From Eledone cirrhosa (Eukaryota), in contig OZ024740.1 in the NCBI GenBank assembly GCA_964016885.1, positions 400,210,001 through 400,274,000 of the forward strand: a DNA stretch of 64,000 nt. The letters are read 5' to 3'. Positions within the stretch are counted from its first letter, which is position 1, and each line of letters starts with the position of its first letter. Made by a program: the position numbers and the translations under genes. The notes under the pieces were generated by a model. It was not told where the DNA came from. It made no database searches and saw only the letters and a list, made by a program, of their open reading frames with translations. Shown here one piece after another: positions 6,576 through 61,962 of the stretch.

Positions 6576-7447
6576 TATCATATATGCAACAACACAGCTC
6601 GCAATTTTTCATTCATATATGCTTTCCCCTTCAATGTGACCTCTCTTTTTTGTCTTCCCTTACTGCTATCCTCTTTCTCTCTCCTCCTTCTCTCTCCTTC
6701 TCCCTCTTACTTTCACTCACCCCCTCTGCTAGTCACACTCTCTCGGCTAGCCTCCTCCTCACACTTTCACTCACTCACTCTCTGCTACTCACCCTCTCTC
6801 TCACTCCATCGTCCCACACCGTACGAAATTCTTTCCTCGCTCACATTCGCACGGCCAAGATGTGTCTTTGCCTTCTCCTCAATATTCGCAAGTTCTTATA
6901 TTCAAAATCAATCATTGACTTGATTTTCTCATTTTTTTCTCTCTTTACGTTGCCTCACCATTCATGTTTGTTTACCTGTCTCTCTTCCTCCACCCAATTC
7001 TTTTTATCCCAATAACTTATTTTAGTTATTGTGTTGCTCTAGCCGGAGGTATATGGTCTGTAATGCGAAGAAATACCAATGATGCTAGTAGACAACTGAT
7101 GATGGATAGTCCTGGCTTCTATTTCTAATTCTTCATTTTATTATATATATCATATATGCAACAACACAGCTCGCCATTTTCATTTATTTTTATGTGTAGA
7201 TAGTACGGCAGTTACTTAAATGTAAGTATGTATATATGTATACGTACATACATATATGTATACAGACGTACAGTACTATGTATATATATATATATATGCA
7301 TACATGCACACATATATATATGCACGTATTGGTTTACCGAACATTTATTATAATGCTCGGTTTGTTTGTAAACAAACAAACAGCCCGAATTACGCCGTAC
7401 AGTGTTTAGGCAAACACGTCACCTTTTTGTTCAATACTGACACAAGA

Positions 7448-7490
7448 ACGATGTACTAGTTTCAAGCTTATTAGCTATCGTCAGCATCGT
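7448..7490 (-). ncRNA. Minimal type I hammerhead ribozyme
   Basis: Reverse complement reads ACGAUG-CUGACGA-uAGCU aaua AGCUu-GAAA-CUAG-UA-CAUCGU. Confidence 0.8.
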
Positions 7491-7887
7491 ATACCTTCCT
7501 GCCAGATGGTTGAACGTCTGAAAGTATATACTTTCCTTATGCATATTAACGGCCGAGCAGCCTAATTTGTATATCGAGAGAGTTTAGTCGGCCAGGCGCA
7601 CCGAAAACGATAAATGGAATAGAATGAAACGAAATTTCATTTCTCACTCTTAGTACAGCAGTTACTTAAATGTAAGTATGTATGTATACGTACATACATA
7701 TATGTATACAGACGTACAGTAGTATGTATATATATACATACATGCACACACATATATATATGCACGTATCGGTTTACCGAACATTTATTATAATGCTCGG
7801 TTTGTTTGTAAACAAAGAAACAGCTCGAATTACGCCGTACAGTGTTTAGGCAACCACTTCACCTTTTTGTTCAACACTGACACAGGA

Positions 7888-7930
7888 ACGATGTACTAGT
7901 TTCAAGCTTATTAGCTATCGTCAGCATCGT
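7888..7930 (-). ncRNA. Minimal type I hammerhead ribozyme
   Basis: Identical to 7448-7490, 440 nt away. Confidence 0.8.
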
Positions 7931-8348
7931 ATACCTTCCTGACAGATGGTTGAACGTCTTCCTTATGCATATTAACGGCTGATCAACATAATTTGCATAT
8001 CGAGTGAGTTTAGTCGGCCGGGCGCACCGAAAACGATAAATGGAATAGAATGAAACATTCGGTAAACCGATACGTGCATATATATATGTGTGCATGTATG
8101 TATATATATATACATACTACTGTACGTCTGTATACATATATGTATGTACGTATACATACATACTTACATTTAAGTAACTGCCGTACTAAGAGTGAGAAAT
8201 GTAATTTCGTTTCATTCTATTCCATTTATCGTTTTCGGTGCGCCCGGCCGACTAAACTCACTCGATATGCAAATTAGGCTGCTCAGCCGTTAATATGCAT
8301 AAGGAAAGTATATACTTTCAGACGTTCAACCATCTGTCAGGAAGGTAT

Positions 8349-8391
8349 ACGATGCTGACGATAGCTAATAAGCTTGAAACTAGTACATCGT
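8349..8391 (+). ncRNA. Minimal type I hammerhead ribozyme
   Basis: Stem I ACGAUG/CAUCGU, core CUGACGA, stem II AGCU/AGCU (closed by U-U), GAAA, palindromic stem III ACUAGU, GUA cleavage triplet (cut after 8385). Confidence 0.82.
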
Positions 8392-58887: not shown

Positions 58888-60609
58888 TAGAAAGGATGAA
58901 TATAAAATGAAAGTGCTTTTTTTAAAAAAGGAATTTATTAGGTATTGACATATGTTTCTGTAACAGACGGAATACCTATGTATCGCTGCTTGCGTAATCA
59001 TATAATGTTAGCATGTATTCGATAGCAAATGTATAATCAGTTGTCACTTCTTCAGAGATTTTGGATAAATTGGATAAAATCAGAAAAATTGAAGTATTTA
59101 TATTAGTAATAGAGGAAGAAACAGAGGGGATAGTATATGACAGATGGTAAATTAATTTACTGCTAAACAAGTATATAATGGGTTTCTAATGAGAATACCA
59201 TGAGTAAATCTAAATAAGAATTTTGGGAGTGCCAATTTTAATCTCTACTTGACCAACTGGACAGTGGACAGGGCTGGTCATTTGGTGCAGTAGTATTAAT
59301 TATAAAGTGTCAATTGGGGAAGGGGGAGATTTCGATTGCTACTAAATAACATCAATGCTAGTAGCTAGCTGGTATATGCATTAGGGAATTGAATCAAGAA
59401 ATCAGAAATCTCATTTTATCTATAGCAGTTTGTATTAAAAGGTAAATAATAGAAGAGTTGATAGAATTAAGACTAATAAAGAATGTTAATATCTATTTTG
59501 ACAATCAAACGGGGATAGAGACAGGCGTTCAATCCTGGTAGTATTTATAATATGAAAATGTAGATCTCTGAAGAAGTGACAACTGATTATACATTTGCTA
59601 TCGAATACATGCTAACATTATATGATTACGCAAGCAGCGATACATAGGTATTCCGTCTGTTACAGAAACATATGTCAATCTATATATATAAAACTGTGGT
59701 TGTCTGTCTGTCTATCGATTTTTGGCACACATCTCCTCTTAGAATCTCTCACGGAATTGCACCGAAATTGTTAGACCTGTACATTCAGCCCTAGCGAAGA
59801 CATCGGAAAAAAAAAATTTCAAATTGACCCACCCTATGTGACGAAATCGAATATAATGTATCGATTTTTGAGCGTAAGTTATCAGTTATTTCCCTTTGTT
59901 CTGTTTACATTGAGCGTCTTACGTAAAAAATTACGCTGGCCTTCTCAGCGTTTCGAACAGTTGTCGAGCCAGCAAAATATTGACCTGCAAAATTCATCAG
60001 TTCGAACACTAAGCTTCCGTTTTGCTTCATTTCCATTTAAAAGCATTTTAAAACAATATTTTTACTTGAAAACAAGTCTATTTAAAGACTACGTAAAACA
60101 AGCAAATATTTCGTCGTTAGGCGTGCAGACAGACAGTCGTGCAGAGAGGTGATATAGGCGTGCAGACAGATAGTCGTGCAGAGAGGTGATATAGGCGTGC
60201 AGACAGACAGTCGTGCAGAGAGGTGATATAGGCGTGCAGACAGACATAACTGATAATTTGGTTACGCTAATGTTTTTCTCTGCGTTGCAGTGTTTACATT
60301 TTCGATCTTTGTTAATAAATAACCAGTGCAGTTTCTATCCCCAGCATCCTCTTTTGTTATAACATTCGGGTTATCGTTATGTTTTCTTAACTTCATAAGG
60401 CATATTGTTGGTTGAGGGAATATTAATCAAAAACACCACATGCAAGTCAGCACAGTAGACACTACAGTTTTTAAGCCAAGAAAGAAACTTAACATTGTAA
60501 CTTTAACACAGCTACTGAGCGACCCCGAGCAACGCCGGGCTTTAATGCTAGTACCTAATAAATTCCTTTTTTTAAAAAAAGCACTTTCATTTTATATTCA
60601 TCCTTTCTA
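58888..60609. mobile_element. Inverted-arm element (arms 58888-59059 and 59564-59678 + 60552-60609), probably Penelope-derived, split by a Helitron
   Basis: The ~170-bp arms are reverse complements once the Helitron is removed; left end abuts (TA)n. Confidence 0.75.
59679..60551 (+). mobile_element. Complete 873-bp non-autonomous Helitron
   Basis: 5' TCTATATATATAAAA, 3' hairpin CCCGAGCAACGCCGGG then CTAG, A|T target with no TSD; internal ~38-bp repeat about three times (60118-60246). Confidence 0.92.
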
Positions 60610-60814
60610 CATTTTCTCCGGAATATAATTTATACTCGTTGAGCAAACCTGCACGTACGCTGTTCATCTCTAACGTAACGATATATTATCACTACATTAT
60701 TGATAACCTGAAATGTTATATATATATATATATATATATATAAAGAAAAAGGGATGAAATCGAAAATGCAACTGAAGTCTTATTTTTAAAAAAAATATAT
60801 ATATTTATTTGGTT

Positions 60815-60852
60815 CCTTTACCGGTTTCGCAGTTCTTCTGCTTTTCAAAAGG
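60815..60852 (-). ncRNA. Hammerhead ribozyme, U3-A8 variant
   Basis: Reverse complement of 60925-60962. Confidence 0.72.
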
Positions 60853-60924
60853 TGAGTTGAGATGGAGGGTCTGTGGTTTTTCTCACATCTGTGAGAAAAA
60901 CCACAGACCCTCCATCTCAACTCA

Positions 60925-60962
60925 CCTTTTGAAAAGCAGAAGAACTGCGAAACCGGTAAAGG
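60925..60962 (+). ncRNA. Hammerhead ribozyme, U3-A8 variant
   Basis: CCUU-UUGAAAA-GCAG aagaa CUGC-GAAA-CCGG-UA-AAGG. Confidence 0.75.
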
Positions 60963-61962
60963 AACCAAATAAATATATATATTTTTTTAAAAAATAAGAC
61001 TTCAGTTGCATTTTCGATTTCATCCCTTTTTCTTTATACTTCCACTCGTGTAGGACACCTCGGTTATTTTTCATTTTGTAAAAAAAACCTCACTTTCTAA
61101 TATATATATATATATATATATATATATATATATATATATATATGTATATATATTTATTTATTTATTAAAATAACAGATTAAAGTTTAAGCAAAGAATCGC
61201 TGCTTTCACCTTAACCTTATTACTATATATATATATATATATATATATATATATATATATATATATATATATATATATATTTAATTGAACCCGGGATAAA
61301 TTTATATATATATATGTATACATACATACATGCATACACACACACATACACATATACATGCATGCAGCCATTCATACATACATAGATATAGATAGATACA
61401 TGCATACATTCATACATGCATACATACATACATACATACATACATACATACATACATACATACATACATACATACATACATACATACATACATACTTACA
61501 TACATACATACTACTCACACATATATTATATGCCAATCAATATTTATTCAAGTATATATTCGAGTCAATAATATCTGAAATGTGATACAGAAGAAGAATT
61601 TCTTTGTTCTATAGATGGTGTAAAAATGTTGAAAATCTCGGAAGGTGCGATATTGAGATAATGGAATCGAAAAGTGGTAGGTTTGCGGTATTTTAAAGAG
61701 AAAAGCAAATAATTGTTTTATGATTAAAACTGATAGCTGCTGGCATGTAAGAAAATTTCACTGACTATGAAAGCGAGTTTAGAAACGAATAATGTGATAA
61801 ATTAATTGAATGCCTCCTGGTCATATATTAGCTAATATTTTGCAACCGTAATTATCATTAGTTCTGATATCAACAAATATCATTAATTTTATTCGTTAAT
61901 TAAACTGCTTAATTTGTTTGCTTGTTTATTGTTGTTGTAAGTTATGATTATTATTGTCATTA

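Follow-up and report, generated by a model that had tools for sequence, protein, structure and literature searches.

In LINE-1 twin priming, two target ends prime on one RNA and produce a head-to-head inversion; the internal site engaged by the second primer varies, and there is no overlap between the arms. Endonuclease-positive (EN+) Penelope-like elements (PLEs) carry an inverted, 5'-truncated copy at their 5' end in head-to-head arrangement, a tail at one end, partial tandems and a hammerhead ribozyme in the pseudo-long terminal repeat (pLTR), and they favor (TA)n targets (PMC8557442, PMC3846280; here and below, comparisons reflect the accessible portions of the sources cited). The origin of the inverted pLTRs and tails has been termed undefined (PMC8557442), and antisense self-priming is a published proposal (PMC3846280). 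Purified protein of PAc, a Poseidon element from Anolis carolinensis, acts preferentially on AT-rich DNA, cutting both strands and extending them; its two internal start sites bound the tail, and it is predicted to be a dimer (PMC11167929). Non-autonomous PLE pairs have been described (PMC9977147), as have PLE-derived, non-coding non-LTR retrozymes (bioRxiv 10.64898/2026.07.22.740005). Here, we analyzed five inverted repeats in a window of 64,000 nucleotides from Eledone cirrhosa (G000:C1:400210001-400274000; genome 3.0 Gb), for which the original prediction, made from the letters of the window, had proposed a common tails-out architecture across unrelated families.

The five structures are 5'-truncated, head-to-head insertions of PLEs, or in one family of a likely non-coding passenger, in (TA)n; both cut ends of the target probably primed on the same RNA at two fixed sites, one short and one long. 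Their architecture is known; new are the family members and a quantified pairing rule.

Five inverted loci in the window

Self-BLAST of the window followed by inspection of the sequence recovered all five inverted repeats, and hammerheads were located by a pattern scan of our own. At 5/5 loci a minus-sense arm lies on the left and a plus-sense arm on the right, as judged by hammerheads (families A and C) or by the family open reading frame (ORF; C, D and E), and 9 of the 10 outer ends abut (TA)n, the exception being the left end at 7201; in both respects the loci agree with what had been predicted. The assignment of every locus to an unrelated family does not hold, since loci 1 and 2 belong to one family (A), leaving four families rather than five. 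At 58888-60609 the inversion stands and the right-arm end at 60609 does not, since an insert (59679-60551) splits the arm, which continues to ~60716 and meets (TA)n. In the following list, short end and long end denote the two 3' ends of each family, of which the long end carries the tail.

7201..8056, minus: family A left arm, about two 450-bp units; the outer end reaches 15 nt into the tail and lies outside (TA)n
8058..8612, plus: right arm of family A, with a hammerhead core at 8355-8385; terminates close to the short end and runs into (TA)n 8603-8859
23371..23596, minus: left arm of the second family A insertion; (TA)n 23321-23370 directly adjoins its short end
23592..24096, plus: second family A insertion, right arm; hammerhead 23736-23766; 56-nt tail, long end
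51869..52996, minus: left arm of family C (Hydra-type PLE), with a hammerhead at 51914-51968; its short end lies at (TA)n 51834-51875
52993..55147, plus: family C right arm; decayed thumb/linker/GIY-YIG frame ~52993-53990, 3' untranslated region (UTR), hammerhead 54969-55023; tail ~55069-55147, long end entering (TA)n 55148-55179
58885..59563, minus: left arm of family D (Hydra-like PLE), consisting of 3' UTR/pLTR; its short end lies at (TA)n 58872-58889
59564..60716, plus: family D right arm; begins at the recurrent pLTR 5' start (-172), split by the insert; tail ~60610-60716, long end entering (TA)n 60717-60742
59679..60551, plus: Helitron-like insert of 873 bp in the family D right arm; target A|T without duplication, TC at the 5' end, and CTAG after a hairpin at the 3' end
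60739..60887, minus: family E left arm, pLTR of a putative Neptune-type PLE; short end
60889..61100, plus: family E right arm; 62-nt tail, long end into (TA)n 61101-61142; hammerhead-like fold 60925-60962
6376..6576, minus: single family E copy, not inverted; long end into (TA)n
55179..55523, plus: family A partial tandem, not inverted; long end into TA
51564..51833, no strand: further short/long palindrome with arms at 51666-51831; its tail, on the left, has an ACTC..GAGT stem
10229..10406, no strand: another short/long palindrome, with arms at 10229-10299; its tail, on the right, has a GCTC..GAGC stem and is followed by TA

Alignment of the arms gave 380 matches, 19 mismatches and 23 gap columns for 7651-8056 against 8209-8623 (A), 213, 3 and 12 for 23369-23596 against 23827-24042 (A), and 1116, 11 and 15 for 51869-52996 against 53928-55068 (C). 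The corresponding values were 174, 1 and 1 for 58885-59059 against the right arm without its insert (D), and 148, 1 and 0 for 60739-60887 against 60890-61038 (E). The palindromes at 51564-51833 and 10229-10406 are additions to the five loci first noticed.

Series of PLE insertions line the (TA)n tracts at 51536-55545 and 58872-61279, which thus serve as repeated landing sites. A direct repeat of ~45 bp lies at 6566-6615, beside the 5' end of the single E copy, and at 7147-7195, immediately beyond the left end of the first insertion of A. The 873-bp insert, which we take to be Helitron-like from its end and target hallmarks, holds a 37-bp internal tandem, has 4 related matches in a random 1 Mb of the genome and resembles in its end a sequence at ~40110.

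Identity of the families

Families C, D and E are 5'-truncated 3' ends of coding PLEs, two of Hydra type and one of Neptune type. Longer genome copies of C and D hold single ORFs of 598 and 741 amino acids with reverse transcriptase (RT) motifs as well as a GIY-YIG domain at the C terminus; the two proteins are 41% identical, and their Atlas look-alikes carry GIY-YIG and RVT_1. A Pfam search with the family proteins returned no match, and a PDB sequence search returned weak 14-3-3 matches alone, which we judged to be due to chance. The ORFs of four copies (L121, L138, L146 and L157) show the Hydra-clade traits, namely a CxCx5C linker, CxxC and CxH around the E and N residues, and the absence of CCHH. 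RWK and DKT motifs are present in D (L146), DKT is legible in the DNA of a C copy (L160), and both families insert into (TA)n, matching the Hydra-clade target. C carries a canonical hammerhead in its pLTR, at 51968 (minus) and 54969 (plus), and an endonuclease frame on the plus strand. In D, a hammerhead core at 59564-59680 comprises CUGAAGA, a long stem II, GAAAC, stem III and UC, with the stem I partner missing. By these motifs, set against the definition in PMC8557442, C would be Hydra-type; D is termed Hydra-like rather than firmly filed because a canonical hammerhead is missing. One copy (L144) is a full pLTR-tail-ORF-pLTR-tail unit in (TA)n, so that, as in EN+ PLEs, the pLTR occurs with its tail in direct (L144) as well as inverted arrangement; any target-site duplication would be masked by the (TA)n flanks.

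A random-sample copy of E runs on into an ORF remnant with a Cys linker (CX2-5CxxC, the first Cys being changed in that copy) and a C-terminal CCHH GIY-YIG domain, and this remnant is 84-89% identical to the L131 ORF where intact. Judged by its ORF motifs, E appears to be the pLTR and tail of a Neptune-type PLE. The fold at 60925-60962 is hammerhead-like, with U3/A8 replacing the C3/G8 pair, a change kept in young E copies.

Family A is a non-coding tandem with a period of 450 bp, each unit of which holds a minimal type I hammerhead; hammerheads lie at 7484 and 7924 (minus) and at 8355 and 23736 (plus), and no complex ORF was found in the unit. It is likely a retrozyme-like, non-coding PLE passenger. 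With non-LTR retrozymes it shares the non-coding tandem unit, the type I hammerhead in each unit and the link to PLEs, whereas its PLE-type short and long ends and its inversions set it apart and suggest target-primed insertion (bioRxiv 10.64898/2026.07.22.740005).

The Penelope RT/GIY-YIG origin that had been suggested is upheld by the RT and GIY-YIG ORFs of C and D and by the Neptune-type ORF continuous with E. The notion of unrelated non-coding passengers served by one enzyme is not, since C, D and E are coding PLEs of two clades, each with its own RT-endonuclease, and only A is without an ORF. The window families show the same layout as EN+ PLEs (PMC8557442, PMC3846280). Tails reported for EN+ PLEs measure 30-40 nt and are optional or often one-sided, whereas those of our four families measure 56-107 nt and the combination of one short and one long end is, by count, near-strict.

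TA flanks and inverted ends are also what miniature inverted-repeat transposable elements (MITEs), or fold-back DNA transposons with terminal inverted repeats, would show in TA targets, and the repeat at 39808-40108 does resemble a symmetric MITE. For the five loci this reading is refuted, and we give it practically no credence: there are no fixed symmetric terminal inverted repeats, the ends being asymmetric and the arm lengths and junctions varying per copy; RT-endonuclease remnants and hammerheads lie in the arms; and roughly a quarter to half of the C, D and A copies are not inverted. The fixed form of family E could at most reflect secondary mobilisation.

Orientation and pairing of ends across the genome

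Genome copies of C and D were drawn from the 40 best places each, giving 38 insertions each once partner arms had been merged, and were complemented by 30 loci of A, 30 copies of E and a random sample of twenty 50-kb blocks (1 Mb), 5.8% of which is (TA)n. Three C/D inversions (L040, L055 and L133) were read separately because internal gaps had broken the alignment chain. Every inverted insertion among the genome copies is tails-out and none is tails-in (C, 28/38; D, 21/38; A, 17/30 loci), so that the predicted outward orientation goes beyond chance. All 30 E copies are inverted and tails-out with five different centers, a set obtained with a query that started at the palindrome center and selects such copies; a genome search with the E tail alone gave zero matches and was uninformative.

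Each family has two discrete, bimodal 3' ends, 56-107 nt apart, both running into (TA)n. Resolved inversions pair one short with one long end in 25/25 cases for C and 17/17 for D, with zero short+short or long+long combinations, an outcome that independent choice at even odds would yield with a probability near 2^-40; the same pairing is seen in 30/30 copies of E. Pairing of a short with a long end is thus close to a strict rule, quantified here for a layout that is itself known. We found neither the strict pairing nor the twin stem described below in the literature searched; supplements of PMC8557442 and PMC11167929 may list families or show pairing.

The random sample yielded 154 inverted-repeat rows, a few of which repeat one insertion. 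Of these, 62 are short+long, with one end flush and the other tailed, in line with the predicted mass production of palindromes; 8 are flush on both sides, 27 on one side and 57 on neither. Hammerheads point outward in 17 rows and inward in 1 (136 rows have none), and PLE ORF remnants within these repeats are tails-out, bar one host element that had received an insertion. A stub family of ~140 nt contributed 31 tails-out pairs, 1 tails-in pair, 2 direct pairs and 20 unpaired matches, and 25 of its 31 tails-out pairs are short+long, 2 are short+short and 4 are unresolved. For a control short interspersed element (SINE), tails-out and tails-in pairs numbered 20 vs 12 at distances up to 4 kb and 2 vs 4 at up to 200 bp, and its 27 inverted-repeat rows are not TA-flush.

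The stub family (L163 5346-5549) has ~85 matches per Mb, forms ~200-bp palindromes with copy-specific junction filler and has no copy in the window. Its interpretation as a stand-alone non-coding SINE was dropped, as one copy reads through the long end into a Hydra-type ORF start. The genome's commonest SINE presumably resembles octopus SINEs.

Palindromes beside (TA)n are a known trouble spot, and chimeric reads, amplification or assembly could in principle have generated them; a separate single-copy palindrome at 50983-51278 indeed lacks substitutions between its arms. For the five loci such an artefact is highly improbable, because the 873-bp insert sits in one arm only, the arms have drifted apart by ~1.0% (D) and ~2.5% (C), and the ends fall at two family-specific sites with an orientation that tracks element sense, a pattern that the control SINE does not share. 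When contigs of 4 sequencing runs were compared with 52600-53900, the family was abundant and none of the pieces listed bridged the junction; contigs break at repeats, which makes this evidence neither way.

Mechanism of insertion

The original prediction had offered cDNA fold-back as one route to the palindromes. In such a scheme a single cDNA, or an antisense RNA as has been proposed (PMC3846280), would fold back and serve as template for the second arm, and trimming of one end by the endonuclease would leave a one-sided tail. Such self-priming accounts for arm identity and palindromic junctions, and it suits the nearly equal arms of some insertions (E; C loci L125 and L129) and one random-sample C palindrome that is short+short with its flank duplicated. 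A copied arm must nest in its template arm, however, so the tailed arm should always extend further 5', whereas the short-ended arm does so in 27/42 resolved insertions (15/25 in C and 12/17 in D; 25 if two near-ties are dropped). In five insertions (L121, L050, L057, L136 and L102) the long arm is a tail piece alone and the arms have no sequence in common. Because the short-ended arm often reaches further and these five insertions have non-overlapping arms, two priming events are needed; fold-back is disfavored for the main class and we consider it unlikely, while the other predicted route, priming from both ends of a break, is the likeliest.

The two target ends might also have primed on two separate RNAs held by a dimeric enzyme. 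Arms ending at unrelated 5' positions are expected in that case, and transcripts of one active locus would share variants too. There would be no evident reason for the strict short+long pairing, and the five tail-only long arms, which halt before the short site, fit two enzymes on one molecule, so that we regard two RNAs as distinctly unlikely. Minority alleles are shared 94 times between the own arms of an insertion vs 21 times with arms of other insertions in C (22 insertions), and 31 vs 5 times in D (19 insertions); mismatches number 280 vs 423 and 95 vs 162, respectively. This sharing of variants between the arms of one insertion fits one RNA template.

Following this reading, in which both cut ends prime on the same RNA, we propose that the GIY-YIG domain nicks both strands in (TA)n and that two RT active sites begin at the short and the long site. 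In Hydra-type families the start sites would likely be set by two RCTC..GAGY stem copies, each just 3' of its site. The two cDNAs might then stop independently or at the RNA 5' end and be joined head to head via short homology or filler. Recurrent 5' stops occur in D at -172 (3/38), at the center of E and, with copy-specific filler, at position ~4 of the stub family; such a stop is likely the transcript start. Short palindromes likely result from priming in the first pLTR of the transcript, so that copying would cover only 60-175 nt to the RNA 5' end. As in LINE-1 twin priming, two ends would use one RNA; here the second site is fixed near the 3' end, so the arms overlap into a palindrome. Priming from both ends agrees with the in vitro activity of PAc, which belongs to a different clade and has in common with the window families two start sites bounding the tail and an AT-rich target; no start-site difference between strands was reported for PAc, and the accessible text does not address the pairing of sites within one insertion (PMC11167929).

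In C, D and the stub family, a small stem of the form RCTC..GAGY lies ~6-8 nt downstream of each 3' end; in D, both are followed by TCTC..GAGC. Many family tails open with the stem, in covarying ACTC/GAGT and GCTC/GAGC versions. The stem likely sets the start sites, in Hydra-type families only. Beyond the five loci, we lean toward the view that PLEs insert by programmed twin priming, with one complex on both nicked strands obligatorily using each of two start sites once on one RNA, the sites being stem-marked in Hydra-type families.

Several points weigh against this account. The pairing is less clear in A, where 10/17 inversions are clearly short+long and 7, including the locus at 7201-8623, are unclear, and three of the C loci, having a junction in common, are perhaps not independent. 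Gene conversion inside the inverted repeat, or a pair of RNAs made at one source locus, could also account for the shared variants. Junction microhomology, which had been suggested for tabulation, was seen as a 1-11 nt overlap in 26/46 junctions, the others being blunt (2) or containing a gap or filler (18), and these overlaps were estimated by BLAST in AT-rich DNA without a null model. The stem motif was picked after inspection of the data, in which it opens the tails of 9/29 families vs 0.22 expected (16/28 defining families with wider spacing); in held-out families the strict motif recurred in only 2/12 (0.18 expected), and not all families have the stem, A and E being without it. For read-through past the long end there are 1-2 records per family (C, 2; stub family, 1), which carry GCTC..GAGC ~7 nt past the long end, with ACTC..GAGT past the short end. 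The pattern scan found no canonical hammerhead in D, only a core without stem I, and no autonomous parent of A appeared among the loci examined, no dedicated search having been made.

Cleavage by the hammerhead was considered as the event that sets the palindrome center; this idea found no support in C and E, where the entire hammerhead motif is contained in the arms.

Short+long pairing and the longer reach of short-ended arms discriminate between insertion models and make predictions for the in vitro system of PMC11167929. Programmed twin priming, if true, would provide one rule to account for the tail, for the inverted pLTR and for short palindromes, and PLEs would be the main source of near-perfect hairpins in this genome, on the order of 10^5 by extrapolation from 1 Mb. 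At ~60 per Mb, these hairpins matter for repeat annotation, where they mimic MITEs and microRNA (miRNA) precursors, and they are candidate sources of double-stranded RNA. An exceptionally high share of hairpin-forming loci has been described in octopus (PMC5625713), and if our proposal is true PLE hairpins possibly feed the high A-to-I editing reported there.

Other features of the window

The mechanism proposed for the five loci does not extend to all palindromes of the window. The palindrome at 50983-51278 duplicates single-copy flank DNA around a (TA)26 core, with 121/121 positions matched between the arms and 2 gap columns, and both of its 2 genome matches are here; it likely represents a second palindrome class, formed by fold-back at (TA)n or by artefact. 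Similar structures lie at 45187-45346 in the window and in a 789-bp palindrome at G000:C2 ~50029400-50030200 (block L183), which makes a PLE stub look tails-in. The second departure, at 39808-40108, is a tandem of two copies of a ~100-bp symmetric palindrome that starts with TATTGGGTCGTC and is flanked by TA, which we take to resemble a mariner-type MITE.

In an Rfam scan of the window, the 150 of 292 rows listed were all miRNA-like, below the gathering score and derived from microsatellites and palindromes. An inverted pair of 216 bp (15821-16028 and 19378-19593), 3.3 kb apart, 90% alike and not TA-flanked, lies in remnants of long interspersed elements (LINEs). A decayed non-LTR retrotransposon with gag-like, endonuclease and RT frames occupies 27933-32474 on the minus strand, RTE-like LINE fragments follow at 33753-35348 and 35706-38527, and an 80-bp tandem array of ~46 copies with 94% matches spans 397-4310.

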